Program-made: the position numbers and the translations under genes
Part shown: one piece after another, positions 25,846 to 63,020 of the stretch
Layout: every line of letters begins with the position of its first letter
Numbering within the stretch: the stretch's first letter is position 1
Origin: a bacterium
Lineage (GTDB): Bacteria > CLD3 > SB21
Direction of reading: 5' to 3'
NCBI GenBank assembly: GCA_013360215.1
Contig: JABWCP010000011.1
Span: 1-64,000 of the forward strand
DNA length: 64,000 nt
The notes under the pieces: model-generated
Told to the model about the DNA's origin: nothing
Databases searched by the model: none
The model's input: only the letters and a program-made list of their open reading frames with translations

Positions 25846-27471
25846 GTGAAAAATCTTTTTAAAAGCGGCGATATTTTTTTGTGGTTCACCGGTGCCGTAC
25901 TCGGTATGATCATGTTTCTCGTTGCGGGCTTGCTGCTCATCGTAAGCTTGCAAGGTGTGGGCGTTTTTTGGCCGGGCAGTGTGGCGGAAGTCGAACTCAA
26001 AGATGGACGACGTTTTGCCGGCGAAATCATGCAGGAGGAAAATATCCCGCTGACCAATGTGCCGGATGCATATAAAGAAGAAGTGCAAACGCGCATTCAA
26101 ATCAAAACCGGTAATCGCGATATTTATGGGTTGGATTTCAAATGGCTAAACACATACGATATCGCGTCATTGCAGTATCCGGATGACTTCGTAATTATCG
26201 AACGGCGTGAATTCGGTAATTTCTACGGACGCGTGGCTTCGATTTCAGAAAACGGAACAATCATCGCCAGCGGAGCACAGGCGACCGAAACGTTGGATCA
26301 GTTTCTCCGCAAAGCCTTGGACGTGCATGATGAACAACTGCACCTCGAAAAAGGGGAAGGCGGTCGCATCAACCGGGCGATCGAGGATACGCGACTTGAA
26401 ATCAAACGTCTGAAATTTTATAAAGAAGATACGCCGGAATTATTGTCGTCGCTTGAGGCGGAGATTCATCGTTTGCAAGAAGCGTATCAGGGCATTCAAA
26501 AACAATTGGAAACGTTGCATCTGAAAACGAGCGGCATGTATGTCAGCGTGATCACTACCGACGGTCAAACCCGCGATTTACCGGTGTCCAAAATCGTGCG
26601 TTTTTATCAACCCAATACGATGAATACGTTTGAGAAATCCGGTTTTTATATAAGCAAAATATTTGAGTATCTGACGGATGAACCGCGCGAGTCGAATACG
26701 GAAGGCGGCGTTTTCCCGGCTATATTCGGTACGGTGTTGATGGTGTTTTTGATGAATCTGGTCGTAGTTCCATTTGGCGTCGTGGCCGCGCTGTACCTGC
26801 GCGAATACGCGAAACAGGGAATCGCTGTACGATTGATTCGCATCGCGGTCAATAATCTTGCGGGCGTACCGTCGATCGTTTTCGGAATTTTCGGATTAGG
26901 TTTTTTTGTGTACTTCTGCGGCGGCACGATAGATCAACTTTTTTATCCGGATCGCCTTCCGACGCCGACATGGGGCACCGGCGGTATTTTGTGGGCATCG
27001 CTGACACTTTCTTTATTGACGGTGCCGGTCGTGATCGTTGCAACGGAAGAAGCCCTGACTACCGTTCCTAAAGGCGTACGGGATGCGTCGCTGGCGCTGG
27101 GTGCGACAAAGTGGCAAACCACATGGCGCGTGGTCATACCGGCTTCTACACCGGGTATTTTGACGGGTGTGATTTTGGCTATGGCGCGCGGTGCAGGCGA
27201 AGTGGCGCCGCTGATGATCACGGGTGTCGTTAAGCTGGCTCCCAATCTGCCGTTGGACGGATCGTTTCCCTTCTTTCATTTGGATCGCAAATTCATGCAT
27301 CTCGGATTTCATATTTACGACGTGGGTTTCCAATCGCCCAATGTAGAAGCGGCCAAACCCATGGTGTTTATGACGGCGTTGCTTTTGATCACGATAGTGC
27401 TTTTGCTCAATCTGACGGCGATCATCGTGCGTGCGCGTTTACGAAAAAAATATCAAGGTTCGGCATTTTAA
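25846..27471 (+). CDS. pstA: Phosphate ABC transporter permease PstA (long form)
   Basis: [28 protein letters not shown] and [10 protein letters not shown]. Confidence 0.93.
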
Positions 27472-28313
27472 TGTATATTCATAAAGAGAACACTATGGAC
27501 ATTCGTATCAGTATGGACAATTCCGCGCCGGGTGAATCAACACCGGAGCAAGTTTCACATCGTGTGAAAATCGTTTCGCGCGATATCAATATGTATTACG
27601 GCGCACACCATGCGCTCAAAAACATTTCGGTGGATATTCATGCCAACGAAGTCACCGCGTTGATCGGTCCGTCGGGTTGCGGTAAATCAACATACCTGCG
27701 CTTATTTAACCGGATGAACGATCTGATCGAAAACGTACGTATCGACGGTCAGATTCTCATGGAAGGGCAAAACATCTATGATAAAGATACGGACGTGGTG
27801 GAGCTTCGAAAAAAAGTCGGCATGATTTTTCAGAAGTCCAATCCGTTTCCTAAATCCATCTATGAAAATGTGGCATACGGTCCGCGCGTCAATGGTGAAA
27901 ATAACAAAACCAAATTAGACGGCATCGTCGAACGGTGTTTACGAAAGTCGGCCTTGTGGGACGAAGTAAAAGATCGTCTTCACGCTTCGGCGTACGGATT
28001 GTCCGGCGGTCAACAGCAACGTTTATGTATAGCCCGTGCGTTGGCCGTGGATCCCGAAGTCTTATTGATGGATGAACCATGTTCCGCTCTGGATCCGATC
28101 GCCACACAAAAAATCGAAGATCTTATCGAAGAATTGAAGCGTGATTATACCATCGTCATCGTCACGCACAATATGCAACAAGCGGCCCGCGTGTCGGATA
28201 AAACGGCATTTATGTGGATGGGCGAGTTGATCGAATTTAACGCCACTAAAAAAATATTTACCTCGCCGGAGAAAAAAATGACCGAAGATTATATCACGGG
28301 TCGCTTCGGATAG
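27471..28313 (+). CDS. pstB: Phosphate ABC transporter ATP-binding protein
   Basis: [38 protein letters not shown] and YITGRFG. Confidence 0.97.
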
Positions 28314-31683: not shown

Positions 31684-32343
31684 TCAGTTGGGTGCGTCGG
31701 TGATTTTGCCGCCTTCGACACGGATAATGCGTTTGGGAAGCGCCTTCACGATGTTATAATCGTGGGTGGCCATAACGATGGCTGTGCCTTCCGCGTTTAT
31801 TTTGGTCAGCAGCTGCATGATCTCCATCGAAGTATCCGGATCAAGATTACCGGTCGGTTCGTCAGCGAGGATCACCATCGGTTCGTTGACAAGTGCGCGT
31901 GCGATGACGACGCGCTGTTGTTCGCCGCCGGATAATTCGTACGGCATGCTGTTCTTTTTGGTGGAAAGCCCTACTTGGGCCAGTGCACGCATCACTTTTT
32001 TCGGAATTTCGCTTTTGGGCGTCTCCGTGACGAGCAACGTAAACGCTATATTATCGTAAACCGAACGATCCCGTAATAACCGAAAATCCTGAAATACAAT
32101 ACCCAGCTGTCGGCGCAGGTAAGGGATTTCCTTTTTTTTGACATTCGATGATTCAAATTCACCGATGCGCACCTGACCTTCTTCAGGTATGATATCCATA
32201 TATAATAATTTAAGCAGTGTGCTTTTGCCGGCACCGCTAGGTCCCAACAAATATACGAACTCACCCGGAGCGATGCGTAGCGAAGCGTTTTCCAAGCTGG
32301 TGCGATTGCGATAACGTACGGTTACGTTTGAAAGTTCGATCAT
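31684..32343 (-). CDS. ftsE: Cell division ATP-binding protein FtsE
   Basis: [43 protein letters not shown] and [10 protein letters not shown]. Confidence 0.92.
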
Positions 32344-41434: not shown

Positions 41435-42079
41435 TTACTCGACTAATTTTTTTTGAATGGCGTAGCGGATAATTTCGGCATTAGATGTTAGATTCATTTT
41501 TTCAAGAATACGGTCTCGCATCGAATTAACCGTTTTGGGGCTGATGCTGAGTGCTTCACCGATCTCTTTGGGTGACAATCCTTGTGCGATCAAGCGCATA
41601 ACCTCGTATTCACGATCCGATAGATTGGTATGGGGTTCATCCGCTCCGGTATCTTTTTCAGCTAGGATCATGGCTACAGCTTTGGTGATAAATTTTTTTC
41701 CGGCCTTTACTGTACGAATTGCTTCGACCAGCTCGTCCGATGCGACGGATTTATTGATATATCCCATAGCGCCTAGGCGAATCGCACGTTCGGCGTATTG
41801 GCTTTCCGGATAAGCCGTTAGTATCAGAACCGGTAATTGAGGTCTTATCATACGCACCTGTTTGAGTGCTTCTAATCCCGTGACACCTGGCATCGAAATG
41901 TCCATCAACGCGACATCAAATATTTCCGTCTGAATGCAGCCAATTAATTCGTCGGCATTCGACGCGTGTGTGATGTGGCAACGCGGATAACGTTCTAGTA
42001 CCGTTTCGGCAAGGCCTTTGCGTACGATAGCGTGATCATCAGCAATAAGAATGCAAGCTATGGGAGCGGGCTGTTCCAT
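41435..42079 (-). CDS. NarL/FixJ (LuxR-HTH) family DNA-binding response regulator, UvrY/GacA-like
   Basis: IADDHAIVRKGL, DISMPG..GL, GA.GYINK and LSDREYEV..LIAQG…IS.KTV. Confidence 0.92.
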   Translation of the reverse strand: MEQPAPIACILIADDHAIVRKGLAETVLERYPRCHITHASNADELIGCIQTEIFDVALMDISMPGVTGLEALKQVRMIRPQLPVLILTAYPESQYAERAIRLGAMGYINKSVASDELVEAIRTVKAGKKFITKAVAMILAEKDTGADEPHTNLSDREYEVMRLIAQGLSPKEIGEALSISPKTVNSMRDRILEKMNLTSNAEIIRYAIQKKLVE

Positions 42080-49110: not shown

Positions 49111-49256
49111 ATTTAGATACGATACTTTTTTTTATTGTCGTTGTCGGACTGTTGTCGTTTACGTTTTTGATTTATATCGGTCGTAAAAGAAAAAAAAGTA
49201 TAGGCGCGCGTAAAGAACGCATCAAAAACCAATGGCGTAACCGCCTTGAGGAATGA
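49107..49256 (+). CDS. Small single-pass membrane protein, 49 aa (MNLDTILFFIVVVGLLSFTFLIYIGRKRKKSIGARKERIKNQWRNRLEE)
   Basis: Translated by hand. Fills the intergenic gap exactly with ATGA overlaps at both ends. TM helix followed by a basic tail. Confidence 0.75.
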   Translation: MNLDTILFFIVVVGLLSFTFLIYIGRKRKKSIGARKERIKNQWRNRLEE

Positions 49257-51019
49257 GTATGGAACCGATGGACAAGCCGCTGGATAAACAATCCCTCATC
49301 AAAGGCGAGGTGCAGGATGACGTGGATCGCAAACTGCTGGAACTGTCTGCGCTTTTTGAAATAAGTCAGTTGCTCAATTCTTCCCTCAATCTGACTTCGA
49401 TCGTAGATAATATCTTGCTCTCACCGATGGGCCGCATGATGATCAATAAAGGTCTTTTTTTGCTGCATCGCGGTGATCATCAGTATGAAATATTTACCCT
49501 CAAAGGTTTATCCCGCGATCTGATCGGAAAAAAAATAAGCATCACCGAGATACCGCAAAAATCTTTTCTCCTCGATGAGGTTTCCGACGCGCCGTATCCG
49601 TGGCTTTCGTTTTTTACGCAGTACGACATGAAGCTGATCGTGCCGATCGTTTTGCGCAACGATATGCTTGGGTTGGTCGCTTTCGGAAAAAAATTGATCG
49701 GTGGTCCGTACATCGAAAGCGAGATCGAATTTTTATCGTCCATCGCCAATATTGCCGCCACCAGCATTCAAAACGGTATTGTGTTCGAAGAGTTACGATC
49801 GGTCAATGCGCGCTTAGATAAAAAAATACAAGAACTGCACACCCTTTTTGACATCGGCAAGGAACTCAACGCCACGTTAGATGCGCAGAAGGTCGTCAAA
49901 TTGCTTTCCTACGGGCTTATGGGTGAAATGATGGTTAATCGTTTCGCGATTTTGGTGCGTCGCCATGACGGTGTCGAATATGCCGAAAAACGGGGCCTTG
50001 CCCGATTGCAGCTCGATGACACCCAGACGTCGCTGGTATTCAATTATTCGCAACCGGCGGTGGTGACGGATGACGAGCACAGCGAACTGCAGCACGCTCT
50101 TCAAAATCAGGATATTATCGCAATTGTTCCGATGCGAAGCCAGGATCGCACAAAAGGTGTTCTGCTTCTTGGCCCTAAAATTTCCGGAAAAGGATTTACT
50201 AAAGAAGAATTAGATTTTGTTTTTACGCTGGGTAATCAGGCGATGATTTCGCTTGAAAACGCATGGCTTTTCGAAGATTCACTGGAGCGTAAACGACTGG
50301 AAGAGGAACTCGAACTTGCACGCAAAATTCAGATGGGCTTGTTACCTAAAGATTTTCCAAAACTGAACAATTTTGAAGTGTACGGTTTGAATATTTCATC
50401 CAAACAAGTCGGTGGCGATTACTTTGATGTGCTCAAAATCGATGAAACGCATTATATCATAGCGATCGCGGATGTGAGCGGTAAAGGCGTACCGGCTTCG
50501 CTTTTGATGAGCAATGTGCAGGCCAGTTTGCTGGCGCTCAGTACCGAAGTCAGTGATTTTAGCAAGCTTGTCTATAAGGTAAATAATATCATTTACGCGA
50601 ATACCGATTCCGAAAAATTTATCACGTTTTTTGGCGGTGTACTGGATATCGAAAAACGTACGTTTACATATGTCAATGCAGGGCACAATCCGCCGTATTG
50701 GCGGAAAACGGATGGGACGTTACATACACTGGATAAAGGCGGTTTACTTTTGGGTATGTTGCCCGACATGCCGTATGAACAAGAAACGATCACGCTTTCA
50801 CCCGGTGAAGGCATCGTCATGTTTACCGATGGCGTGACGGAAGCGATGAACGAAAAGTTGGATCAATATGACGAATCGCGCCTTGAAGCATTGATCAAGA
50901 CGCATCCGAAGATAACGGCCAAAGAATGTACGGAAAAAATTGCCGCTGAAGTCAAAGCCTTTGCCGGTGCGGCGCCGCAGTCAGACGATATCACCGTTGT
51001 TATCCTCCATGCTATTTAA
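49253..51019 (+). CDS. PP2C/SpoIIE Ser/Thr phosphatase with two GAF domains (RsbU-like)
   Basis: EELELARKIQ, VGGDYFD, IADVSGKG.PA, NAGHNPP, FTDGVTEA and QSDDIT. Confidence 0.92.
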   Translation: MSMEPMDKPLDKQSLIKGEVQDDVDRKLLELSALFEISQLLNSSLNLTSIVDNILLSPMGRMMINKGLFLLHRGDHQYEIFTLKGLSRDLIGKKISITEIPQKSFLLDEVSDAPYPWLSFFTQYDMKLIVPIVLRNDMLGLVAFGKKLIGGPYIESEIEFLSSIANIAATSIQNGIVFEELRSVNARLDKKIQELHTLFDIGKELNATLDAQKVVKLLSYGLMGEMMVNRFAILVRRHDGVEYAEKRGLARLQLDDTQTSLVFNYSQPAVVTDDEHSELQHALQNQDIIAIVPMRSQDRTKGVLLLGPKISGKGFTKEELDFVFTLGNQAMISLENAWLFEDSLERKRLEEELELARKIQMGLLPKDFPKLNNFEVYGLNISSKQVGGDYFDVLKIDETHYIIAIADVSGKGVPASLLMSNVQASLLALSTEVSDFSKLVYKVNNIIYANTDSEKFITFFGGVLDIEKRTFTYVNAGHNPPYWRKTDGTLHTLDKGGLLLGMLPDMPYEQETITLSPGEGIVMFTDGVTEAMNEKLDQYDESRLEALIKTHPKITAKECTEKIAAEVKAFAGAAPQSDDITVVILHAI

Positions 51020-51089
51020 GAGCCTACCTTTATTTTGGAAACATAGCGGCGTGATGTAAAACATCCGCCGTTTTTGATATGAAAGTGAT

Positions 51090-53435
51090 ATGTATAAAAT
51101 GTTAGTAAAGAATTTAATTTTTTTAGCGTTGTTTGTTACCGTCGCTGTAGTCACTGGCCAAGAAACCGGTGTGATCACGGGCGTGGTCATTGACGCGAAA
51201 ACCAAAGAGTATCTTGCCGGAGTGAATGTGCAGATACTGGGCACAACGCGCGGAACGGTAGCCGATATCAACGGGCAGTACCGGTTGGATAAATTGGCCG
51301 GTGGGACATACCGCCTGCAATTTTCACTGATCGGATATGCGCCGCTCATCAAGACCGATGTCATTGTCACGGGGAACAAGCCGTTTCGGCTCAATGTTGC
51401 AATGGAAGCGGAAAGTATCGAAGGCGACGAAGTGATCGTAACGGCGGGATATTTTGAAGAGCAAAATCAAACTAAGACGAGCACGGCTAATCTATCCCGT
51501 GAAGAAATACGGCGATTTCCCGGCGGTTTTGAAGACGTCGTGCAAACAGTGGCTACACTGCCCGGTGTGGCGGTCAATGGCGGCGGTGGACGCAATGATT
51601 TACTGGTGCGCGGCGGCGGTCCGTCAGAAAATTTGTATATCGTCAACGGGTTGGAAATTCCCAATATCAATCACTTTGGCACGCAGGGAAACAACGGCGG
51701 TTCGCTGAGTTTCATTAACCTGGATTTCGTGGATAATGTTGATTTTTCGACAGGCGGTTTTTCGGCACGGTACGGTGACAAGATGTCATCCGTCACACAA
51801 CTTACATTGCGAAGCGGACGCGATGATCGTATCGGCGGTAAAGGGCTGATCTCGGCGACGCAATTTGGCGTCAACACCGAAGGACCATTGGGAAAAAGCG
51901 GAAACTTTATCATGTCGGCCCGACGGAGTTATCTGGATTTTATTTTCAAAGCCGCCGGATTTGCTTTCGTGCCGAGGTACACGGATTTTAATGTGATCGG
52001 TCAATACGAACCATCGCCGCGTGATAAATTCACTTTTCTCGCATTGACGGCACTTGATGATGTGAGTAAAAATAATGAAAAACGGAAAGATCGTATTTTT
52101 AATTCCGGGCTTCTTGATAATGAACAATTCATACAAGTCGTCGGTGCCAGTTACCAGCACAACCTTGAAAAAGGATTTTGGCAGGCTACAGCCAATGTCA
52201 ATTTTTCAGGATATCGTTTTTCACAAAAAGATACGACGCTGCGCGAATATTATAACAGCCGTGCCAACGAAGTGGAAACGAATGCTTCCGTTCAGCGGTA
52301 TTTTGTGATTAATAAATCCATGGGTATTTTGACCGGATTGAGTATGAAATCCGTCAATAATCGCAATGAAACCGTATTTGGTGATACGATCGTGGATCGC
52401 AACGGTAATCGTATACCCGCGGATTCGCTGGGCCTAGCGGGATTGGATGAAACACGTGCGTCAGCGTATAAATACGGCGGGTTTACGGAAATGGATTGGG
52501 TCGTGTCGCCGCGCCTCAATGCTAATGCAGGTTTACGCGTAGATCGGTACTCGGCTTTGGAAAAAACAACGTATGTTGCTCCGCGTTTGGCATTCAAATA
52601 TAAAATATCGGACAAATCCAATCTTAAATTGAGCGGCGGAACCTATTATCAATCGCCATCGTACGTATGGTTAGTCAATCCGGCTAATAAAAAACTCAAA
52701 GCATTGCGCAACGACATGGTCGTAGCGGGTGCGGACCGTTTATTGCGTCCGGATGTGAAGTTATCCATTGAGACATATTACAAAAAGTACAGTCATCTGC
52801 CGACCGGAACACAACAAGGTATCAATGATTATATCGTCATTACAAGCACCGGCACCGGGTTTGGTGGGCGCGAAGATAATTTTCAATCCTTCGGATATAC
52901 GACGTTGGTTTCGCGTGCAACTGGAAAAGCGTTTGGTGTCGAAATGTTACTTCAAAAGAAATTTTCTGACATACCATGTTACGGTCAAATCAGTATTACG
53001 GTGGGTAAAAGTACAGTGGTAGCGGGTAACGGTAAAACCTATCCCAATCCGTTTGATCAGCGCTTTATTTTAAATGTTTCCGGCGGTTATAAATTGAATA
53101 CCAAATGGGAATTCAGCGGTAAGTTTCGCTATTTTACCGGCGCTCCGTATACACCGGTTTATCGTCCTCAGGATAATCCCGTGCAACCGGGTGTCGTTCA
53201 AAATCTTCCGGATGAGTACCTTTCCAAACGTCTGGGAGCGAGCCATCATCTGGACTTACGCGCGGATCGGTATTTTAATTATGAACATTGGCGGCTTATT
53301 ATTTTTATGGACGTACAAAATGTATATAACTACAAAGTCAAAACGCCGCCGTCGTACGATTTCGCGGAGGATAAAGTGACCCGTGGTGATCGCATAGGGA
53401 TACTGCCTACGATCGGTATCAGTGCTGAATTTTAA
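51090..53435 (+). CDS. TonB-dependent receptor
   Basis: Signal peptide, carboxypeptidase-like N-domain, VRGGGPSENL, NINHF, GGFSARYGD..SSV and C-terminal F. Confidence 0.9.
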   Translation: MYKMLVKNLIFLALFVTVAVVTGQETGVITGVVIDAKTKEYLAGVNVQILGTTRGTVADINGQYRLDKLAGGTYRLQFSLIGYAPLIKTDVIVTGNKPFRLNVAMEAESIEGDEVIVTAGYFEEQNQTKTSTANLSREEIRRFPGGFEDVVQTVATLPGVAVNGGGGRNDLLVRGGGPSENLYIVNGLEIPNINHFGTQGNNGGSLSFINLDFVDNVDFSTGGFSARYGDKMSSVTQLTLRSGRDDRIGGKGLISATQFGVNTEGPLGKSGNFIMSARRSYLDFIFKAAGFAFVPRYTDFNVIGQYEPSPRDKFTFLALTALDDVSKNNEKRKDRIFNSGLLDNEQFIQVVGASYQHNLEKGFWQATANVNFSGYRFSQKDTTLREYYNSRANEVETNASVQRYFVINKSMGILTGLSMKSVNNRNETVFGDTIVDRNGNRIPADSLGLAGLDETRASAYKYGGFTEMDWVVSPRLNANAGLRVDRYSALEKTTYVAPRLAFKYKISDKSNLKLSGGTYYQSPSYVWLVNPANKKLKALRNDMVVAGADRLLRPDVKLSIETYYKKYSHLPTGTQQGINDYIVITSTGTGFGGREDNFQSFGYTTLVSRATGKAFGVEMLLQKKFSDIPCYGQISITVGKSTVVAGNGKTYPNPFDQRFILNVSGGYKLNTKWEFSGKFRYFTGAPYTPVYRPQDNPVQPGVVQNLPDEYLSKRLGASHHLDLRADRYFNYEHWRLIIFMDVQNVYNYKVKTPPSYDFAEDKVTRGDRIGILPTIGISAEF

Positions 53436-53451
53436 TCTAATGGAGAAGGAT

Positions 53452-55050
53452 ATGCCGAAAATATTGATTTGCGTAGTCGTCCTGAACCTAACCGGTTGTG
53501 GTTTTTTTATCACGCCCCGCTCTTCAGACCAGGCATCCATTCGCGAGGAAAATTTAGTGGCTCATTTGACGTATCTTGCATCGGACGAATTAGAAGGACG
53601 GGAGGCGGGTACACGCGGAGAAAAATTAGCTGCCGGTTATATCGCCTCACAGTTAAGACAAAACGGTGTTAAACCTTTTGCGCTCGCCCGAACGGCGGAC
53701 GGCCGAGACAGTCTGTCGTATTTTCAGGAATTTTCTTCGACCAAAATTGCGATCGGCAAACATTCATCCGTGATTTTTTATGACAGCGCAAGCGGGAATT
53801 CGTACACCATGCCTTATGCCGAAACATTTAGTAATTTTCATGAATATGTAGATAATTGTAATACTTCTGCACCGCTCGTTTTTGCCGGGTTTGGTATCAC
53901 GGCGCCGGAATACGGATACGATGATTATGCAGGTCTGGATGTACGCGGTAAAGTCGTATTAGTGCTTGATGGTGAACCGACATCGGATGATGATCAGTTT
54001 TTCGACGGGAAAATAGTAAGTTCGTATAGTAGCGCTTTATTTTATAAGAGGCATCGGGCAAAGGAATTGGGTGCGGCTGTGTTGTTTGTGTTATCATACC
54101 AAGCGCTTTTGGAAAAATGGGATGACTATGTGGATTTCTTCGGATCCAGCCGCATGATTTTTGATCCATCGGTTTTACCAAAATCGGAGGGCGAACGGGT
54201 TCCTTTTTATTATTGCCATATGGCATTTGCCAAACGTGCATTGGCATCCGCTGAGACGAATTTTGAACAAATTCAATCTAAGGCGCAGTCGGGTGCGATG
54301 GTGCCGCGGTTTACTGTGAAAAATATACGTTGCGATGTACGTGTCGAACGCACGGTTACAGAAGTGAAAGCGATGAATATTATCGGTAAAATCGAAGGCC
54401 ATGATCCGGTATTGAAAAATGAATATGTGGCTATCGGGGCACATTTCGATCATTTGGGAGTCAATGCGTCGGCCGCCATATTTAATGGGGCGGATGATGA
54501 CGGTTCCGGCACGGCCGCAGTTTTGGAAACGGTTCGTTCGGTATTTGTTTCACAACAAAATAAACGTTCGGTATTAGTTGTATTTCACGGAGCGGAAGAA
54601 AAAGGGCTGATTGGTTCAAAGTATCTGACCGATCCGGCCACCGTCAACGCGTGGGCATGGAAAGACGTCACTGCACAAATTAATATGGATATGGTAGGAA
54701 GGGAAAGTGTAGATAGTATTTATGTGATCGGCTCGGGCCGCCTTAGTTCACAACTCAAATCAACCAATGAATCCATTAATCGCGGAACGGGCTACTTTCA
54801 TTTTGATTACACATTTGATCGCGACGATGATCCTAATCAATATTACTACCGAAGCGATCACTATAATTATGCCAAATTAGGTATTCCCATCGTTTTTTTC
54901 TTTGACGGCATGACGTCCGATTATCACAAACCCAGCGATGATGTTGCTAAGATCAATTTCAAAAAATTATACAAAATCACCGATCATACGCGCCGGCTAT
55001 TGATGAATCTGACCAATAGGCCGGAGCGACTTGTCGTGGATAAACGCTAA
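53452..55050 (+). CDS. M28 family metallopeptidase lipoprotein with PA domain
   Basis: LTGC lipobox, YLASDELEGR, AHFDHLG, NGADDDGSG, AEEKGL.GS, NMDMVGR, RSDH and DYHKPSD. Confidence 0.92.
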   Translation: MPKILICVVVLNLTGCGFFITPRSSDQASIREENLVAHLTYLASDELEGREAGTRGEKLAAGYIASQLRQNGVKPFALARTADGRDSLSYFQEFSSTKIAIGKHSSVIFYDSASGNSYTMPYAETFSNFHEYVDNCNTSAPLVFAGFGITAPEYGYDDYAGLDVRGKVVLVLDGEPTSDDDQFFDGKIVSSYSSALFYKRHRAKELGAAVLFVLSYQALLEKWDDYVDFFGSSRMIFDPSVLPKSEGERVPFYYCHMAFAKRALASAETNFEQIQSKAQSGAMVPRFTVKNIRCDVRVERTVTEVKAMNIIGKIEGHDPVLKNEYVAIGAHFDHLGVNASAAIFNGADDDGSGTAAVLETVRSVFVSQQNKRSVLVVFHGAEEKGLIGSKYLTDPATVNAWAWKDVTAQINMDMVGRESVDSIYVIGSGRLSSQLKSTNESINRGTGYFHFDYTFDRDDDPNQYYYRSDHYNYAKLGIPIVFFFDGMTSDYHKPSDDVAKINFKKLYKITDHTRRLLMNLTNRPERLVVDKR

Positions 55051-55053
55051 ACG

Positions 55054-55647
55054 ATGTTTCTCCGTCGTAAGGAAATAAATATAGACGAATTTCTGCGCCC
55101 CGGATCGCGCGGGCACGGCTATGTTGTTAATTTTCATCGTAAATACTTCGATGTGTTCCGCGGTACAGATTTGGAAAATCAGGACGCATTCATCAATGAG
55201 GTATATATCGGGTTATCGTCTATTCGCGAAGAGAGCATTCGCGAAAAAGCCGATCATTATCTGATGAAAGCCGTTTATTTTCGTTGCTGGCGTTTATTTG
55301 AAGATAGTAAAGTATACAAACAGTCCGAAGTACCGGCGAGCCGTGCGCAACGCGACAATGAAGATGATGATGCCGTAACGCGTGCGCCCTCGACGACCCC
55401 GCTACCTGATTCACCTCTTTTAGCTCAAGATTTGCTTGAACATATCCATCGTTTTCGTATGACATTGAATTCGCGAGAGATCGTGATACTCAATGGGCTG
55501 ATTGATGAACTGACTGTTGCTGAAATTGCTCGAAAAGCCGGAATCACAATAAATTATGCAGGCGTACTGATACACAGAGTACGTGAAGCGTTACATGTTT
55601 ATTTAGAAGTTATCGGGTATTTCAAAAAAAATAAAAAAAAGTTGTAA
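55054..55647 (+). CDS. ECF-type sigma-70-like factor (divergent region 2, clear region 4 HTH)
   Basis: D…EVYI.L…YL..AV..RC resembles region 2. LNSRE..IL…LT.AEIA…GIT…V.I.R.R..L matches region 4. 197 aa. Confidence 0.72.
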   Translation: MFLRRKEINIDEFLRPGSRGHGYVVNFHRKYFDVFRGTDLENQDAFINEVYIGLSSIREESIREKADHYLMKAVYFRCWRLFEDSKVYKQSEVPASRAQRDNEDDDAVTRAPSTTPLPDSPLLAQDLLEHIHRFRMTLNSREIVILNGLIDELTVAEIARKAGITINYAGVLIHRVREALHVYLEVIGYFKKNKKKL

Positions 55648-55713
55648 GTATTTTATTGCTATCCGTACTTACTGTTTGTGAGGAGTTAGTTTAGTGCAAA
55701 AAAAGGCCGTATT

Positions 55714-56763
55714 ATGACAGATGATGAGAAAAAAATAAATCTAGATTTCTTGGACCCGTTACGTCAGATTCCGTCCGTGATATGGAATGCCGAGAAGATG
55801 AGCCGTTGTATTCACGGGTACTCCGTTATGAGTAAATATGAACGGGATTGGTTTGATACGCAGATTCGTGAAGAAGATTCCGCCCGTAATCTTTTTGAAC
55901 AAGTATTTGATGATGATATTCTTTTGGATCCGTCCTATCGCACAGAATCTCCGCTCATACAAAAAATGAGCAAAGGAATCCAAATACGCTGTGCGACGGG
56001 ACTGACATTGCAAATAGATCAATCCACGGCGTTGATTTCTGAAGCGGGTCCGACGTGGATCGGCCAAAGCGCATTAATTACGTCGGTAGGGTGGTCCTTA
56101 CGGATTCTTGAAGTACAAACAGGGTTAAGGTTACCATGCGCATCGCTATCTGAACAATTTTTTAGCGAACTTAAAGTTTGTAGTGTTTCGCTTGCCGATA
56201 AAGAAAATTTAGTTCGCACAGATAGGCCTGTATGGTATATTTGGTCGGCCGCTGCAACGATTGTCGTGATGATCATGGCCGGTATATGGTGGCTGCAGAA
56301 GCCGACTGAAGTTTTAACGACGGATACGAAGCCTGATATTTCCAAAGATACACTCGTGGTGCCTCAACATCACCTCACGGAACAACCCCAAGTCGCATTG
56401 CCTCTGCAGCAAACACCAAAGCCGAACAAAGAAAAATTATTGGCAGCGCATTTCGAACCGAATGCCGTTCTTGAAAATTTTATCGGACGTACATACCGCG
56501 CGGAGGTACGTATAGAAATAATCCAGCCCTCTTCTGGGGATACGCTTCGCGGGCCTTTGGTTTTTACTTGGAAAAAATCGGATCCTAATGTAAATGTTAC
56601 GGTAAATATTTTAAACAATCGTAATGCTTCGGTATGGGAAGCTAATACGAAAGAAGATCAATTGTCGTATAACGGTGTATTGACACCGGGATTGTATTAT
56701 TGGATTATCAAGTCCGGTGATGTGCGTCTTGATGTACGAAAATTTTATATTCCTGTTCAGTAA
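55714..56763 (+). CDS. Putative anti-sigma-like single-pass membrane protein with small C-terminal beta-sandwich
   Basis: Directly downstream of the sigma gene. TM WYIWSAAATIVVMIMAGIWWL, P/Q/T-rich linker, then FEPN..LE…YR…F.WK…LTPGLYYW. Confidence 0.6.
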   Translation: MTDDEKKINLDFLDPLRQIPSVIWNAEKMSRCIHGYSVMSKYERDWFDTQIREEDSARNLFEQVFDDDILLDPSYRTESPLIQKMSKGIQIRCATGLTLQIDQSTALISEAGPTWIGQSALITSVGWSLRILEVQTGLRLPCASLSEQFFSELKVCSVSLADKENLVRTDRPVWYIWSAAATIVVMIMAGIWWLQKPTEVLTTDTKPDISKDTLVVPQHHLTEQPQVALPLQQTPKPNKEKLLAAHFEPNAVLENFIGRTYRAEVRIEIIQPSSGDTLRGPLVFTWKKSDPNVNVTVNILNNRNASVWEANTKEDQLSYNGVLTPGLYYWIIKSGDVRLDVRKFYIPVQ

Positions 56764-59700
56764 CCGATCAAAACAAACGCGCCCCAATCGCCGGGGTAGG
56801 ATGTGTGTTGTTGTGCTATCCATCGTTTTTGTGTTTTTTGCAGCGCCAGGCTCAGGTTTTTTTCAGTAAAGACATTACGATAAAACTCTGTCATAAATTC
56901 GGCCGTCAAACGGTCATCTACCGGCCAGAGTGACACAAGCACGTGTCTTGCTCCGGCGTAAATGAAGCCCCGTGTTAATCCGATCACCCCTTCGCCTTTT
57001 TCGATTTTTCCCAGCGCCGTTTTGCAGGCACTGAGTGTTACCAAGTGGGCTTTGAGACGGAGGTTGTATATTTCTCCGGCATATAATATATCTTCTTTCA
57101 CGTCAACCGAGTCGTCGGAGTAAAGAGCAATGCCTGATAATTTCGGATTCACTTCATTTATAAAACCGTGACTGGCCACGTGGATATAACCGTAATGGAT
57201 CAAGGTGTCATTTAATACTTGTTTTTTTGTTGCCGCACGGTGGACTATGATTTTAGAATCCAATTTTCTTTGGGAAAAGAGCGATTTAATTTGTTTTACC
57301 TCTTGAATACTGTAGGGTAAAGTCGGAAAACCTTCCCCCTTTTGCTGGATTTGTCGTGAAGAGGTTTTTGTTGAGTCGTAAAATTTATATGATTGAATAT
57401 CGCCGCTCGTTACGCTGTCATCAAATACCGGTGCAATGCCATAGAATGAATTGGGTGCGATTGTAGAATGGGATGATAATAGCATATCTGCTGACATTAA
57501 ATACTGTATCGAATAATCCTCAGATAGATAACGAGCACGCGTATTTTGTTTATCACCTTCGGTAAGCTTTGCTTTCATTAATAATGTTTCAAACGGTAAA
57601 TAATATAACATGCCGTCCGGAATAATAATTAGTGGGGTTCCTATGGCTATTGATTCCAACGAAGGTTTAACCCATTGATTATAAAATGCTATTGAATACC
57701 TCTCATACGAAGAAATATCAAGATCAGTAAGTCCTTGACGTATATGTCTAATAGTGTATTCAAAGGTACTGTCTTTGCTTTGAGCAATCATGGTTTTAGT
57801 TTTATCCGTCAATCGGATAATCATAATCAAGGAATCACCGACAAAATAATCCAAAACGACACCCGGCCTGATTTTCAGATGATTTTGAATATCTGAAATA
57901 TTCGGCACGGTGATATCATATTTTAACTGATAGTAAGCAGGGTTTGTTTTTTCAATCGACTGCTGCAGAGTTTCGTATCTGCTTTTTAGGTCGAAAAGTA
58001 TTTTAGCTGTGTATGATTGTTCGTCTGAATTATTGAATTTACTGCTCTGTGGCGATGGTGTGTATTTTGTTTCATAGAAAGCAATTTGAGTTTTTAACTC
58101 GCGTTCTAAGCGGAGAATCGAATCGGAAATTGTAGCAAAATTCCGAACCTGGAGTTCATGTAGAGCTTCACGTAATGTCCCGGCTTTACTGCGTTGTGAC
58201 ATAACAAATGCGCGATCAATCCATTTATTGTCGGAAGTAATATAATAGGCTTCAGAGATAGTTTTTAATGCCGATTCATAGATTATTTTGGCTTTGGAAC
58301 CTAAAAAGATTTTGGATCCTTCAAGGCGGTAACCTTGACGGAGAATATCTATCCATGATGCCGTAAGGTTATAAACATTATAGGATTCTTCTAAGTACAA
58401 CAATTTCTTTGTTCGATCGTATTGCTTTTTAAGAAGCCGTGCTTTTTGAGCGAGGATAACAATTGTACCGGTTTCAGGGCGGATCAATTGCAGAGGAGGA
58501 TTTTCACTAATTGAGGAGTCAGAAAATGCTGGTAATTGTGTTATGAGAGCATTCTGAGTGTAACGTAATGCAACTTCTACATTGTTATTTTGCTCAGCGA
58601 TTTCAGCGCGATGCATCCACATCTCAGCTATTTCAGGATTTTTTGAACCAAAGGCCTTGTTTGCCATTTCGATTGCTGCAGAAAAAAGTGAGTCAGACAG
58701 GAAAAATTCTTTTCTTTTCCCATGGATAATCGCTAGGTAAGTCATGTTTTTAGCGACTTCGCCGTGAATTTTATATTTTTTTTTATTGACTGCAAAAGCT
58801 GAATCATAATAAAATAGTGCTGAATCATTATCTCCCAGTTCGCGATAAATATTTCCAATATTACCAAGGCTCGCGGCAGCGGCAATAGAATTTATCCCGA
58901 ATATATTTTGGCGAACTTGTAATGCTCTTGACTGATAGTCCAGCGCTGAACGATAGTTTTGGCGATTGTAGTTGAGGATGGCCAAATCTACATAACTCCC
59001 AGCCACATCCGGATGATTTGTCCCAAAAGCTCGGATACGAGACGATAGCGCTTTGGCATGATAATCTGCAGATTTTTCGACATCTCCCATAATGTCATAA
59101 CAGATGCCGAGATTGTCGTATATTAAGGCGGTACGTGGATGCTCATCACCCAGTGTTTTGATGCGAATGGTCAAAGCTTTTTTATAGTACTCTTCTGCCG
59201 ATGTATAATCTCCAAGCCTCCTATAGATGACACCAATGTTGATATAGCTTGAGGCTACCGAATTGTGAAATGGGCCAGAAGTAGATATTCGTATTCGCAG
59301 CGCCTCTTTAGAGTAAAATAACGCACTATCAAATTTGGATTTGTCGGAGTATATAATACCAATCATATTATAAATAGCGGCAACATCAAAATGGTCATAA
59401 CCAAGTTTCGCAATGCGAATTTGTAAAACAGAACGATTTGCCTCTAATGATGAATCTAAATCACCTTTACTCCACAAAGTAATAGTTATAGCACTCAAAA
59501 CTTTGGCGTACGACAAGTTATCTGAGCCTAGGTTTTGTTTAATTTGCTCTAAAGCCATATAGCCTTTTGTGAGAGCTAAATCATATCTGGCCACTGTGCG
59601 GTGTGTTTCAATTATTTCTGAAGCGATGTCGGCAATACGCTCCCAACATTGATGTGATTTATATGCCTCATAAGATTGGTTTAAGTAAATGAGAGCACTG

Positions 59701-59852
59701 TCATATTTCAGAACTTTCAAAAACTGTTGTGCTGTAGTGTAGTCGCGTTGAGCCTGAAGCGTATCTTTAAGGGTTTGTGAAAACGAATAGTCTGTAGGAC
59801 AATGTAAAAACAATATTGACCATGATAGAAATAATAATGGTAGCTTATTCAT
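56757..59852 (-). CDS. TPR-repeat CHAT-domain (caspase-clan) protease with N-terminal signal/TM segment
   Basis: Kinesin-light-chain-type TPRs (HP.VA.SY.N.G..Y). CHAT motifs IIPDG.LYYLPFE.L, HVASHG (catalytic His), VTLSACKT (catalytic Cys), GEG..GL.RGF.YAGA, SLWPVDD and W.AFVLIG. Start trimmed to MNKLPL. Confidence 0.93.
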   Translation of the reverse strand: MNKLPLLFLSWSILFLHCPTDYSFSQTLKDTLQAQRDYTTAQQFLKVLKYDSALIYLNQSYEAYKSHQCWERIADIASEIIETHRTVARYDLALTKGYMALEQIKQNLGSDNLSYAKVLSAITITLWSKGDLDSSLEANRSVLQIRIAKLGYDHFDVAAIYNMIGIIYSDKSKFDSALFYSKEALRIRISTSGPFHNSVASSYINIGVIYRRLGDYTSAEEYYKKALTIRIKTLGDEHPRTALIYDNLGICYDIMGDVEKSADYHAKALSSRIRAFGTNHPDVAGSYVDLAILNYNRQNYRSALDYQSRALQVRQNIFGINSIAAAASLGNIGNIYRELGDNDSALFYYDSAFAVNKKKYKIHGEVAKNMTYLAIIHGKRKEFFLSDSLFSAAIEMANKAFGSKNPEIAEMWMHRAEIAEQNNNVEVALRYTQNALITQLPAFSDSSISENPPLQLIRPETGTIVILAQKARLLKKQYDRTKKLLYLEESYNVYNLTASWIDILRQGYRLEGSKIFLGSKAKIIYESALKTISEAYYITSDNKWIDRAFVMSQRSKAGTLREALHELQVRNFATISDSILRLERELKTQIAFYETKYTPSPQSSKFNNSDEQSYTAKILFDLKSRYETLQQSIEKTNPAYYQLKYDITVPNISDIQNHLKIRPGVVLDYFVGDSLIMIIRLTDKTKTMIAQSKDSTFEYTIRHIRQGLTDLDISSYERYSIAFYNQWVKPSLESIAIGTPLIIIPDGMLYYLPFETLLMKAKLTEGDKQNTRARYLSEDYSIQYLMSADMLLSSHSTIAPNSFYGIAPVFDDSVTSGDIQSYKFYDSTKTSSRQIQQKGEGFPTLPYSIQEVKQIKSLFSQRKLDSKIIVHRAATKKQVLNDTLIHYGYIHVASHGFINEVNPKLSGIALYSDDSVDVKEDILYAGEIYNLRLKAHLVTLSACKTALGKIEKGEGVIGLTRGFIYAGARHVLVSLWPVDDRLTAEFMTEFYRNVFTEKNLSLALQKTQKRWIAQQHTSYPGDWGAFVLIGY

Positions 59853-60817
59853 GCGTTCCCCTTTACAAATGCTATAGCCCTCTCTTCCGACCAATAATAA
59901 CCTTTTTTAGAAGATGCAGGAAAACCGACATGTCCTCCGTCCCGAGGCATTTCTAAAGTAATGTGAGTATGGTGTTGTATCTGTGCGATCGGAAAACACG
60001 ATGGGCCTAAAAACGGATCGTTTTGTGCATTGACCAGTAATGTCGGTATCGCAATGTTATCCAAAAACGTCACGGCACTGCACCGGGACCAATAATCTTC
60101 AGCGTCGCGAAAACCATGTATCGGTGCCGTATAGCGGTCATCAAATTGGCGAAATGTTTTAATTTCTGAAAATCCTGTGTCACTGATTTGTCCGGGAAAC
60201 ATCGTTGATTTCAATTTTATTTTTTCATGAAGCATGCGCAAAAAACGACGCATGTAGATGCGGCAGGCAGGAGACTCCATTGTTAATGCCGATGACTTGA
60301 GGTCCACAGGAACTGAAAATGTGACCGCTTTACGGATAGCCGGATGGACTTGATTTCCCTTGTCACCGAGATATTTGAGGGTCATGTTTCCACCCAAACT
60401 AAATCCGATCAATACAATTTCCGTATATCCTCGGCTGAGTCCATGATGTATGACGACTTCTAAGTCTTCGGTGGCTCCGCTGTGGTATGAACGCAGCAAA
60501 CGATTCGATTCACCGCTGCATCCGCGATAATTCCAGGCGAGAACATTCCAACCTTCTTCATGAAATCGTTTGGCCATGCCGCGCACGTAAGTGCGCGAGG
60601 TATTCCCCTCAAGACCATGCGATAGGATTGCCAGTTTGGTTGATGTGTGCGTAGCGAGCCAATCCAAATCCAGAAAATCATCATCCGGTGTCGTTATGCG
60701 TTCACGCGTAAATGAAACGTCATGTACTTTCCGAAATAACGTCGGAAAAATCGTTTGCACATGGCCGTTAAAAAGAAGTAATGGCGCCCGGTATGTTGAT
60801 GCTTCGATTAAAGGCAT
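59849..60817 (-). CDS. YheT-like alpha/beta hydrolase
   Basis: NGH.QTI, D.DFLDLDW, HGLEG, RGCSGE.N, GFSLGGN, FDD.YTAP.HGF and GGHVGF. Confidence 0.92.
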   Translation of the reverse strand: MPLIEASTYRAPLLLFNGHVQTIFPTLFRKVHDVSFTRERITTPDDDFLDLDWLATHTSTKLAILSHGLEGNTSRTYVRGMAKRFHEEGWNVLAWNYRGCSGESNRLLRSYHSGATEDLEVVIHHGLSRGYTEIVLIGFSLGGNMTLKYLGDKGNQVHPAIRKAVTFSVPVDLKSSALTMESPACRIYMRRFLRMLHEKIKLKSTMFPGQISDTGFSEIKTFRQFDDRYTAPIHGFRDAEDYWSRCSAVTFLDNIAIPTLLVNAQNDPFLGPSCFPIAQIQHHTHITLEMPRDGGHVGFPASSKKGYYWSEERAIAFVKGNA

Positions 60818-60824
60818 AGTCCTT

Positions 60825-63020
60825 CTATAAATTACGTTTCCAAAATTCAATCATGGTTTTGCATAGATGCAGTTTGGCCGCTGTATCCGTAAACGTATGT
60901 TTGCGCATGGGGTACATCATCATTTCAAAACGTTTATCCGCGCGAATCAGCTCGTCAACAAAGTGCCATGTATTTTGCGGATGGACATTATCGTCATACG
61001 TGCCATGCACTAGGAGTAATCTTCCGCTCAGGTTTTTCGCATACCGGTTGAGATCTGTTTTAAGATAACCATCCGGATTTTCCTGAGGGGTCTTCATTGT
61101 AGCTTCACCATATTTGGTATCATAATAATGCCAACTAGTGAGCGGAGCGACGGCGACACCGGCTTTAAAAAGCGAAGTTCGTGTCATGGCCAGTAGAGTA
61201 AAGGTTCCGCCACCACTGCGACCCCATATGCCAATACGTTCGGGGTTAACGAATGATCGCGTTTTAATCCAAGCCACGGCATCCTCTAGATCGCGTAATT
61301 CACCGTCGCTGGCTTGCATGCGGACAACGGTATTTTCCAGTATTTTGCTGATTCCGGTAGCGCTTCTATTATCCACGGTGATGACGATATATCCGTCGCG
61401 CACCCATAACTGATGCGGCATGATGGTTTCTTTCGGCCAACGGTGATTGACTTGCGGTGCGCTCGGGCCACCGTACACATGGAGAATGACGGGGTATTTT
61501 TTGGTCGAATCAAAATCGGCAGGACGCAGCATCATTGCGGGCATCGGAAAACTGTCACGCGTGGCGATCGTAAAAAAACGGTATGGTACGAATCCCAAAG
61601 TACGCGCATACGTTGTATCCGCCGCGGCGATCACTTGTTTGATGGAGCCGTCCGGTTTGTGCAACGTAAGGGAAGGTGGTGTATCGGCGGATGAATGATG
61701 GTACATTAGAAACCGTCCGTCCGGACTTAGTGTCGCATCATACGTACCATCTTTGATCGAAAGTCTTTTTTTATTTTTTCCGTCAAAACGAATGCTGTAA
61801 ATGTGGCGTTCAATCGAAGATTTTTCCAGTGACTGATAATATAAGGTCTGCGTTTTTTCATCTATACCGACCACACCGCCTTTGCTGTACAGCGTTGTCA
61901 TTTGTACAGACCATGTTCCAGACGTAACGGGACGTATCAAGCGCCCGTCACTTTGATAATGATACAGATGCGTGTATCCGCTGCGTTGAGACGACCAGAT
62001 AAATTCGCTGCCACCTTTTAAAAAATACAAATCGTTGTGTTCGCGGACAAATCCGGAGTTGGTTTCTGAAAGTATCCGTGTAGGTTTTCCGGAAGCCGCA
62101 TCTACAAAATAAAGATTCAATTCGGTTTGCGAACGGTTCATCGTCTGCATGGCCAATCGCTTGTTGTCGGGAAGCCATTTTACCCGCACGATGTATTCAT
62201 ACGTCAGGCCGGTCATATCCACAGCCACCGTTTTTCCGGTATTCATGTTTCTGCAGTGCAGGGTAGCGATAGGATTGACGCTTCCGGTTTTAGGATAACG
62301 TTGGTGTATCAATGCCGGAACGGCGGGTTTATAATCCTGAAAAACCACATCGTCAACTTGCGATTCATCAAATTTATAAAACGCAAGTAGCGAACCGTCG
62401 TCTGACCAAAAGCTGCCAAGCTCTTCGCGATCGTAGATTTCTTCCCAATAAACCCAGGACAAACGACCGTTTAGTAATGTCGAACTTCCGTCGGAGGTGA
62501 TCCGTGTTTCTTTTTGCGAAACAAGATCGTAACTAAACAAATCATTGTGGCGGACGTAAACGACTTTTTTTCCGTCCGGAGCAAGCCGGGGCGCCATTTC
62601 TTCGTCCGATGTCGCGGTTACGCGCGTCCATTGTGATGTTTTAAAGTGAAAGATAAATACGTCGCCTTCAAAAGAAAATAAGGCCAGCGATCCAGATGCA
62701 TCCAAACCCTCCGGCCAAGGCAATGCGGGGGGAGCGGAGGAGATATGTTTTTGTAAACCCGCGATAGCCGTACGCATATCAAAGAGTGTAAAGCGTTCCC
62801 CGCTTTGGGGATTCAACATTTGATAAGAACGTTCGGACCATGCGACGCGTGTGTCGTAAAGTATAATGGTATTCTGCGAAGTCCAAAAATAAGAAGGCGC
62901 TTCGGTGCGTTGTTTAATTTCACCGTTGTACAGATATTCAGGTGTGAGTGTTACGTTCGTTTGAGCGTAAACGGGCGCGGTTATCATCGCCGCTATGATC
63001 CATAATAATCTTTTTTTCAT
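60825..63020 (-). CDS. Dipeptidyl peptidase IV (S9B) family peptidase
   Basis: DPPIV N-domain (WVYWEEI, YPK.G..NP), VYGGP, GIWGRSGGG nucleophile motif, HGT.DDNVH and YP.RKH. Confidence 0.92.
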   Translation of the reverse strand: MKKRLLWIIAAMITAPVYAQTNVTLTPEYLYNGEIKQRTEAPSYFWTSQNTIILYDTRVAWSERSYQMLNPQSGERFTLFDMRTAIAGLQKHISSAPPALPWPEGLDASGSLALFSFEGDVFIFHFKTSQWTRVTATSDEEMAPRLAPDGKKVVYVRHNDLFSYDLVSQKETRITSDGSSTLLNGRLSWVYWEEIYDREELGSFWSDDGSLLAFYKFDESQVDDVVFQDYKPAVPALIHQRYPKTGSVNPIATLHCRNMNTGKTVAVDMTGLTYEYIVRVKWLPDNKRLAMQTMNRSQTELNLYFVDAASGKPTRILSETNSGFVREHNDLYFLKGGSEFIWSSQRSGYTHLYHYQSDGRLIRPVTSGTWSVQMTTLYSKGGVVGIDEKTQTLYYQSLEKSSIERHIYSIRFDGKNKKRLSIKDGTYDATLSPDGRFLMYHHSSADTPPSLTLHKPDGSIKQVIAAADTTYARTLGFVPYRFFTIATRDSFPMPAMMLRPADFDSTKKYPVILHVYGGPSAPQVNHRWPKETIMPHQLWVRDGYIVITVDNRSATGISKILENTVVRMQASDGELRDLEDAVAWIKTRSFVNPERIGIWGRSGGGTFTLLAMTRTSLFKAGVAVAPLTSWHYYDTKYGEATMKTPQENPDGYLKTDLNRYAKNLSGRLLLVHGTYDDNVHPQNTWHFVDELIRADKRFEMMMYPMRKHTFTDTAAKLHLCKTMIEFWKRNL

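Follow-up and report, generated by a model that had tools for sequence, protein, structure and literature searches.

A conserved sigma factor, anti-sigma and TPR-CHAT gene unit: a candidate split form of the DdvA system

Described systems that tie CHAT proteins to sigma factors

The closest described relative of the gene set studied here is the DdvA/DdvS pair of Myxococcus xanthus (PDB 8rot, 8rw5), in which DdvA, a ZAS-type anti-sigma factor, carries a TPR-CHAT protein as its periplasmic part (PMC11506125). Its authors propose that the linker is cut in trans by the CHAT domain, which would be a site-1 protease working ahead of RseP; they could not demonstrate cleavage (PMC11506125). Here we analyze a 64,000-nucleotide stretch of bacterial DNA (assembly GCA_013360215.1, contig JABWCP010000011.1, positions 1 to 64,000; hereafter the window), which at positions 55054-59852 carries three genes, encoding a putative extracytoplasmic function (ECF) sigma factor, an anti-sigma-like single-pass membrane protein and a separate TPR-CHAT protein that is predicted to be exported. 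The linkage of these genes recurs in several phyla, and we tentatively read them as a split, DdvA-like module.

Among structural matches to the modeled window protease, DdvA (8rot_A) is the best by Foldseek (E 4.1e-13), followed by Csx29 and separase, and in VIA alignments DdvA (Z 19.5-19.8, 475-482 residues aligned, root-mean-square deviation about 11) is the sole listed match that spans both the TPR and the CHAT parts. Since DdvA is the best structural match to the protease, the module appears to be a split DdvA-like system rather than a relative of Craspase. Both systems combine an ECF sigma factor with a single-pass anti-sigma factor that has a disordered periplasmic linker, and both have a periplasmic TPR-CHAT protein with a His-Cys pair, the periplasmic location being deduced here from the predicted signal segment. 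By analogy, the site-1 cut by CHAT and the subsequent action of RseP proposed for DdvA may apply here as well.

The differences from DdvA are nevertheless considerable. The TPR-CHAT part is fused to the anti-sigma factor in DdvA, whereas here it is a separate, putatively exported protein and the anti-sigma factor has an Ig-like domain of its own; instead of a single polypeptide with anti-sigma, transmembrane and TPR-CHAT parts we find two convergent genes in the window and separate genes in 62 of the 80 loci described below. The CHAT domain of DdvA is described as lacking three helices (PMC11506125), while the window domain covers positions 9-288 of the 289 in the Pfam profile. The CHCC zinc centre of DdvA has no counterpart in the window copy, which lacks zinc ligands; DdvA/DdvS control an island of CBASS (cyclic-oligonucleotide-based antiphage signalling) and CRISPR genes, and no defence genes were found among the 52 open reading frames (ORFs) of the window. 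Finally, DdvA-like proteins are reported only from Myxococcota and one Comamonas (PMC11506125), in contrast to the split family, which occurs in Bacteroidota-related groups, KSB1, Aminicenantes and others.

An earlier reading of the window, made from its letters alone (below, the sequence-only reading), had taken type III-E Craspase, composed of Cas7-11, the TPR-CHAT protein Csx29, Csx30 and an RpoE-like sigma factor, as its point of comparison. The likeness is the genetic association of a TPR-CHAT protein with a sigma factor and a protein that binds it, and in structure Csx29 comes third among the Foldseek matches. However, Craspase is cytoplasmic and RNA-guided, whereas the window protease has a predicted signal peptide, the window contains no Cas7-11, and the anti-sigma factor is a membrane protein of the ZAS family and not Csx30. 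Membership in this system was rejected, as the NCBIfam model CAS_csx29_CRASP scored 22 bits against a cut-off of 300 and the window holds neither a CRISPR array (0 tandem repeats) nor a Cas or CBASS match among its 52 ORFs (PADLOC). The absence of cas genes and of an array had been noted correctly before; as a relative, Craspase gives way to DdvA/DdvS.

The canonical pair controlled by regulated intramembrane proteolysis is RseA/sigma-E, with the proteases DegS and RseP. A single-pass anti-sigma factor, a periplasmic trigger and a site-2 protease are what the module would have in common with it. In contrast, the gene beside the pair here encodes the candidate site-1 protease, a cysteine protease of caspase fold with a presumed TPR sensor, in place of a PDZ serine protease encoded elsewhere.

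A genomic association of an ECF sigma factor with a CHAT-domain protein is also catalogued for the group ECF54 of Actinobacteria, for which nearby CHAT, carboxypeptidase and subtilase genes are listed, proteolytic control is proposed and an anti-sigma factor is said to be lacking (PMC8999054). Unlike this actinobacterial group, the loci described here have a dedicated anti-sigma family as the linked partner. The term 'CHAT' does not occur in the main text of the ECF re-classification paper (PMC7826278), whose supplements, like the ECF Hub, were not covered. According to the sequence-only reading, no mechanistic description was known for an exported CHAT protease controlling a sigma factor. This has to be qualified, since the trans-envelope idea is already in print for the fused DdvA (PMC11506125); it stands for the split form, which was not found in the literature searched (this gave DdvA, Craspase and ECF54 only, and did not extend to the DdvA-like proteins in supplementary table S7 of PMC11506125).

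The three gene products and their linkage across genomes

The layout of the locus agrees with the sequence-only reading in the position of the three ORFs, their 7-nt overlap and the approximate length (~1030 amino acids) of the TPR-CHAT protein. The features are as follows.

55054-55647, plus strand: gene of a divergent ECF-type sigma-70 family protein (assigned at the family level), 197 amino acids
55714-56763, plus strand: gene of the anti-sigma-like single-pass protein, 349 amino acids
55714-55926, plus strand: anti-sigma domain, residues 1-71, with four helices (3-71), from the model and alignments
55939-56187, plus strand: extra cytoplasmic beta domain, residues 76-158, model pLDDT 84-92
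56233-56295, plus strand: single transmembrane helix, residues 174-194, hydrophobic WYIWSAAATIVVMIMAGIWWL, a helix in the model
56299-56439, plus strand: disordered periplasmic linker, residues 196-242, rich in P, Q, T and K, pLDDT 28-33; the proposed cleavage region
56443-56502, plus strand: pre-domain motif A-x2-F-x5-LE-x7-RS, residues 244-263, conserved in the family
56512-56751, plus strand: C-terminal periplasmic Ig/FN3-like beta sandwich with the PGLYYW signature (267-346 in the model), pLDDT 85-93
56757-59894, minus strand: TPR-CHAT ORF, 1045 amino acids if the start is TTG
59778-59852, minus strand: predicted signal peptide of the TPR-CHAT protein, signal-like N-terminus MNKLPLLFLSWSILFLHCPTDYSFS
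58533-59783, minus strand: TPR array, residues ~24-440, about ten repeats, Pfam TPR_12 E 4.7e-53 in six stretches, model pLDDT ~90
57870-58475, minus strand: long-helix middle region, residues 460-661, between the TPR array and CHAT, from the model
56763-57680, minus strand: CHAT caspase-like protease domain, Pfam CHAT E 1.5e-60, with His895 at 57168-57170 and Cys943 at 57024-57026

The true start of the TPR-CHAT gene is likely the ATG at 59852, which gives a protein of 1031 amino acids. The sigma gene and the gene of the 349-residue protein are on the same strand, 66 nt apart, and the latter converges with the TPR-CHAT gene so that their 3' ends share 7 nt (56757-56763).

The loci used for the analysis of gene linkage were found by a genome scan keyed only on the anti-sigma motif [PAQ]G[LI]YYWK[LI][EQL]. 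This yielded 80 loci in named metagenome-assembled genomes, spanning Chitinophagaceae, Saprospiraceae and Lewinellaceae (Bacteroidota), Ignavibacteriales, KSB1, Aminicenantes, Calditrichia and others. CHAT genes were detected by a profile built from the window's orthologs, and were counted when an ORF of at least 500 amino acids lay within 1 kb downstream of the anti-sigma gene. Such an ORF is present in 62 loci, convergent in 49 and on the same strand in 13, and the gap between the two genes is small (median under 10 nt, most from -19 to +50 nt). Three further loci have a CHAT gene that is split in two ORFs, lies 2.1 kb downstream or lies 1 kb upstream, respectively; one locus has a CHAT remnant of 79 amino acids, and in eight the flank is too short to judge. 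Altogether, CHAT stands beside the anti-sigma gene in 65 of the 72 evaluable loci, so the failure of co-occurrence that the sequence-only reading had named as fatal to its proposal was not seen. All other flanking genes differ between genomes, which limits the unit to the three genes and leaves out the peptidase genes of the window. We conclude that the sigma, anti-sigma and TPR-CHAT genes form a real conserved unit with strong cross-phylum linkage.

There are 14 loci in the window's own phylum, and the order of sigma and anti-sigma genes is the same in 12 of them. CHAT is adjacent in eight of the 14 (in three of these with one or two extra genes in between), is reduced to a fragment adjoining an anti-sigma remnant in one, and is missing from three, while two loci are cut by contig ends. 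The extra genes belong to one genus (L022:7117-7914, minus strand; L023:5188-5784, plus strand; L025:9061-10898, plus strand); a CarboxypepD_reg-like domain is recognized in one of the products, and Pfam matches nothing in the others. Among the in-phylum sigma/anti-sigma pairs without CHAT are L027:8874-11909 and L029:5132-7734, both on the minus strand, of which one precedes genes for LanC-like and lanthipeptide dehydratase proteins and the other precedes genes for a protein with a FlgD_ig/CHU_C tail of the type IX secretion kind and for a PorV-like protein.

Assignment of the sigma factor is weak for the window protein taken alone. Its Pfam Sigma70_r4_2 match (E 0.024) is below the cut-off, NCBIfam TIGR02937 (E 1.5e-4, residues 25-183) reaches 21 bits against a cut-off of 42.9, and Pfam Sigma70_r2 gives no match at E up to 0.1. 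We therefore considered it as a group with 12 orthologs drawn from its own small phylum, which was represented by 20 species genomes. TIGR02937 matches nine of these 13 proteins (best 2.6e-9), and the group profile matches sigma-H (3mzy, E 7.5e-6) and SigW (5wuq, E 1e-3) over the C-terminal ~100 residues, the region-4 half, where it displays the helix-turn-helix expected of the ECF (group IV) sigma-70 family. When aligned with hhalign to the sigma group of the distant loci, this group gave 85.8% probability with E 5.4e-6 over the full length (167 columns), and several of the distant sigma-like proteins pass Pfam region 2, region 4 or ECF models. Pfam sigma regions are found in 24 of the 68 ORFs located upstream of the anti-sigma gene in the wider loci, and 62 of the 68 share one phmmer cluster with Pfam-recognized sigma ORFs. 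From these family-level comparisons, the 197-residue protein is best read as a strongly divergent ECF-type sigma factor, in line with the sequence-only reading.

The AlphaFold2 model of the 349-residue protein (mean pLDDT 74; pLDDT being the predicted local distance difference test) agrees with the architecture proposed earlier, that is a cytoplasmic N-terminal half, one transmembrane helix, a P/Q/T linker and a small beta domain. The general layout of ZAS-type (class I) anti-sigma factors is present: an N-terminal helical bundle precedes a single transmembrane helix, and the gene immediately follows that of the sigma factor. The zinc signature H...HxxxCxxC occurs in at least 90% of 35 aligned relatives, and Pfam zf-HC2 is matched weakly by two relatives, whereas the window copy has W24, Q50, E54 and A57 in place of H, H, C and C, and its nearest database relative has likewise replaced the ligands; the HxxxCxxC feature is thus one of the family and not of the window protein. 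Across 91 family sequences, A179 and A180 of the transmembrane helix are kept in 81% and 77%, and F247, L253, E254 and R262 of the pre-domain motif in 82%, 87%, 85% and 99%, respectively. P272, F284, W286 and N302 of the C-terminal domain are kept in 98-100%; the corresponding figure for PGLYYW itself is inflated because most of the sequences were picked through that motif. The linker (196-242) is poorly conserved. Neither Pfam nor NCBIfam has a model that matches the 349-residue protein, including its C-terminal domain; Foldseek returned only generic Ig/FN3 matches, and residues 236-349 fell into unnamed clusters of the ESM Atlas with scores under 0.9. The family profile hit only RslA (3hug_B) among PDB sequences, at a non-significant E of 2. 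As judged from these alignments, the 349-residue protein is supported as a genuine member of an anti-sigma family.

This family is large and unannotated, with the C-terminal Ig-like domain, predicted to be periplasmic, common to all its members. While a word-indexed homolog search found just three close relatives of the 349-residue protein, 1706 cluster representatives passed an E threshold of 1e-3 in an exhaustive profile search, and 949 still passed at 1e-10. Relatives are present in 11 of 14 genomes of the window's taxonomic family and in one of three genomes of the sister family. Most of the 150 top-ranking representatives listed are short forms of 230-270 amino acids, which lack the extra cytoplasmic beta domain; the extra domain (76-158) is limited to the long form of ~350 amino acids, where these confidently modeled ~80 residues follow the anti-sigma helices and precede the membrane helix, still in the cytoplasm. 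One protein (P0047, 525 amino acids) joins a sigma-like N-terminal half to a long-form anti-sigma factor in one ORF, which may be either a natural fusion or a gene-calling read-through; if natural, it would point indirectly to binding of the sigma factor by its anti-sigma factor. The definition of this unannotated periplasmic domain family provides a marker of such anti-sigma factors.

The CHAT domain (PF12770) of the third protein is recognized with 205.6 bits against a cut-off of 24. HVASHG and LSAC, the intact His-Cys dyad pointed out in the sequence-only reading, are both present as expected for the CHAT protease family, and the codons of His895 and Cys943 were checked; both residues are invariant in eight of eight close orthologs and the catalytic pair is kept in 67 of the 68 linked CHAT ORFs of the wider loci. 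The signal-like N-terminus was also confirmed, and an N-terminal hydrophobic signal or a lipobox-like GC was found in 56 of 64 full-length CHAT ORFs, compared to 9 of 320 internal control windows. Many of the signal segments end in ...AQ or ...SQ, and the copies from Aminicenantes have a lipobox-like ...GC. Ends of the ...AQ/...SQ kind fit the 'Q-rule' of signal peptidase I in Bacteroidetes. Given the signal-like N-terminus, the protease is predicted to reside in the periplasm, in the same compartment as the anti-sigma linker and Ig-like domain; a separation of the CHAT domain from the linker, which the sequence-only reading had listed among the outcomes that would sink it, is not what these predictions indicate.

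In the structure model (pLDDT 79), a TPR array of ten repeats is followed by the long-helix middle region and a CHAT fold. The TPR part gave VIA Z-scores of 22-27 to APPBP2, KLC and the TPRs of Rap/NprR (about 22 for the peptide-binding Rap/NprR receptors), a likeness that says little because these are helical repeats. A profile search of PDB sequences with the TPR-CHAT protein was swamped by TPR proteins.

Proposed mechanism and competing explanations

We propose that the three proteins may form a split, DdvA-like module acting across the envelope, a reading that we regard as a serious possibility somewhat short of an even chance. The anti-sigma N-terminal helical domain, zinc-free in this lineage, would keep the sigma factor in the cytoplasm, while the disordered linker and the family-specific Ig-like domain would be exposed in the periplasm. 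After export through the Sec pathway, the TPR-CHAT protein would dock on this periplasmic part. A periplasmic cue read by the TPR array would activate the CHAT domain, which as a site-1 protease would cut the periplasmic region of the anti-sigma factor; an RseP-type site-2 protease could then cut within the membrane (an RseP-like M50 protease is encoded in the same genome), and the sigma factor would be set free to act on its presumed regulon. A more far-reaching version, which we hold with distinctly less confidence, is that anti-sigma factors with the PGLYYW domain and exported TPR-CHAT proteins constitute a widespread two-protein pathway (more than 1000 sequence clusters), where a caspase-like protease with a peptide-binding TPR sensor of the Rap/NprR kind would be the dedicated trigger that cuts the anti-sigma factor.

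Contact between the two periplasmic partners was addressed by complex prediction with TPR-CHAT residues 152-1031 and anti-sigma residues 230-349, each with an alignment (TPR residues 24-151 and linker residues 195-229 were left out). The score was 0.47 (0.30, 0.48 and 0.47 in the individual runs), compared to 0.00 for the best control, with agreement between runs in at least 74% of contacts and a partner pLDDT of at least 78. Of 157 solved complexes, 116 attain the mark applied to this score, as do 2 of 215 mismatched pairs; the range at or under 0.60 holds only 18 of the 157 solved complexes together with both passing mismatches. The modeled complex nudges the odds of a physical contact upward, and no more.

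Several observations weigh against cleavage of the anti-sigma factor as the trigger. The complex score lies in a range where most predictions prove wrong, unless the contact was probable to begin with. The window sigma factor is too divergent for a Pfam call, and the window anti-sigma factor has lost every zinc ligand. Six of the 72 evaluable loci have 3 kb or more of flank but no CHAT gene, and within the phylum the anti-sigma gene stands without CHAT at 3 of 12 loci, meaning that the anti-sigma factor can exist without this protease. The opposite strand of CHAT in 49 of the 62 loci implies that it is not co-transcribed with the sigma operon, and among Bacteroidota no 5+4-mer dyad was common to the regions upstream of the sigma genes (27 loci) and of the CHAT genes (24 loci). 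As the linker is unconserved, no cleavage motif can be named. For DdvA itself, CHAT cleavage is unproven and mutation of the catalytic pair is described as without effect in unperturbed cells (PMC11506125).

Three other explanations were weighed. The TPR-CHAT protein might bind the Ig-like domain without cutting it, and so guard the anti-sigma factor from a separate site-1 protease or relay ligand binding by conformational change, its CHAT activity being aimed at other periplasmic substrates or at itself. RseB, which protects RseA, is a precedent for such a shield. A family-specific folded domain with near-invariant surface motifs resembles a docking module more than a substrate, the linker is unconserved, and the complex prediction weakly supports binding as such (0.47 against 0.00); in addition, the bulky TPR-CHAT part of DdvA is described as sterically blocking RseP (PMC11506125). 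We nevertheless judge this explanation unlikely, if worth keeping in view: all but one of the 68 partners keep the catalytic His and Cys, which argues that proteolysis matters to the module, and no second protease gene is conserved beside it. The protease could instead lie downstream of the switch, as an effector controlled or monitored by the sigma factor (in envelope remodelling, self-destruction or defence), with the anti-sigma periplasmic domain sensing the products of the protease or sequestering it. Genes that are closely linked yet not transcribed together (49 of 62 convergent) also suit a regulator-target pair, and ECF groups with nearby CHAT genes are known where regulator and target are indistinguishable, such as ECF54 (PMC8999054), a caveat given in general form by Casas-Pastor 2021 (PMC7826278). 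Translation of the window CHAT gene is coupled to that of peptidase-type genes (DPP-IV, i.e. dipeptidyl peptidase IV, and alpha/beta hydrolase). These flanking genes, however, are not conserved in relatives, no intergenic region of its own precedes the CHAT gene in the window, and the sigma and CHAT upstream regions share no promoter dyad. An output role of this kind thus seems improbable to us, to much the same degree as the shield.

Lastly, the sigma pair and the TPR-CHAT gene might be functionally unrelated neighbors that owe their adjacency to locus ancestry, as gene order is common among kin and CHAT is absent from the 6 of 72 and 3 of 12 loci mentioned above. Yet adjacency is retained in several groups of phylum level whose other flanking genes are all different, and it persists despite the changed relative orientation in the 13 same-strand loci. 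We consider this explanation very improbable.

Cleavage by CHAT, should it hold, would extend the known set of site-1 proteases in regulated intramembrane proteolysis by a cysteine protease of caspase fold, and would connect bacterial CHAT proteases, mostly without a known role, to transcriptional signalling. Its recurrence in many phyla makes the pairing more than an oddity of a single lineage, and if the trigger reading is true, caspase-fold proteolysis would be a general, CRISPR-independent switch for ECF sigma factors. The putative protease and the putative substrate are separate proteins and can therefore be expressed, mutated and mixed independently, which on the same reading offers a separable enzyme-substrate pair for proving a mechanism so far only proposed for DdvA.

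Surroundings of the unit

In the window, the module sits amid genes of the peptide-utilisation type. The flanks (49253-55050, plus strand, and 59849-63020, minus strand) encode a GAF-SpoIIE phosphatase, a TonB-dependent receptor, an M28 peptidase, an alpha/beta hydrolase and DPP-IV. The sigma gene starts 3 nt past the stop of the upstream M28 peptidase gene, and the likely start ATG of the TPR-CHAT gene shares an ATGA with the stop codon TGA of the alpha/beta-hydrolase gene that precedes it. Such tight or overlapping spacing on both sides makes read-through co-transcription with the flanking peptidase-type genes likely, in this genome only. Neighbors vary among relatives and include Na/Ca exchangers, DAHP synthase, PFK, GH57 and others; the M28, DPP-IV, alpha/beta hydrolase and TonB receptor genes were rejected as parts of the module, as they are not conserved beside it in relatives.

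A scan of the window for consensus promoters and terminators stayed at chance level (31 found against 26.3 expected, and 12 against 10.3, respectively). The dyad TTGC-N18-GTATA was found upstream of 13 of 27 Bacteroidota sigma genes of the module, about 200 nt out (loci L036-L071), and not upstream of the CHAT genes in the Bacteroidota loci; it could be a promoter of the sigma operon. It does not occur near the module in the window, where the single match elsewhere compares to 1.84 expected, and these promoter searches yielded no target promoter of the sigma factor.

PADLOC matches in the window are only generic ATPase-type and weak ones, distant from the module. A 214-residue ORF (41435-42079, minus strand) weakly matches a CARF-type model (E 4.4e-9), and the ATPase ORFs 27471-28313 and 31684-32343, which match mad3/AriA-type models, are probably generic ABC ATPases.

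DNA near-identical to 55054-59852 is present in activated-sludge and sludge metagenome runs (20 holders from 11 studies). At least half of the sampled words of this segment are contained in 14 metagenome runs, and three runs may be the source of the DNA itself. Contigs from RNA-labelled libraries (X18 and X19, which are one sample, and X20; the label of X17 is a guess) match short pieces of all three genes at a depth of 2-5, which permits no reading of transcription, strand or level; DNA carry-over is possible, and the uncovered parts are uninformative.

The genome from which the window derives has a second, different sigma/anti-sigma/CHAT cluster at locus L116 (contig C14:148000-157000). Three overlapping genes on the plus strand (2562-3176, 3154-3945 and 3942-4727) encode a canonical ECF sigma factor, an anti-sigma-like protein with zf-HC2 and TPR, and a short CHAT protein that covers only positions 93-289 of the profile and has a signal peptide and a C-terminal transmembrane helix. 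The convergent gene on the minus strand (5058-7517) encodes an 819-residue TPR protein with only the first ~70 CHAT positions, so that in this cluster the CHAT domain looks as if it were divided between two genes.

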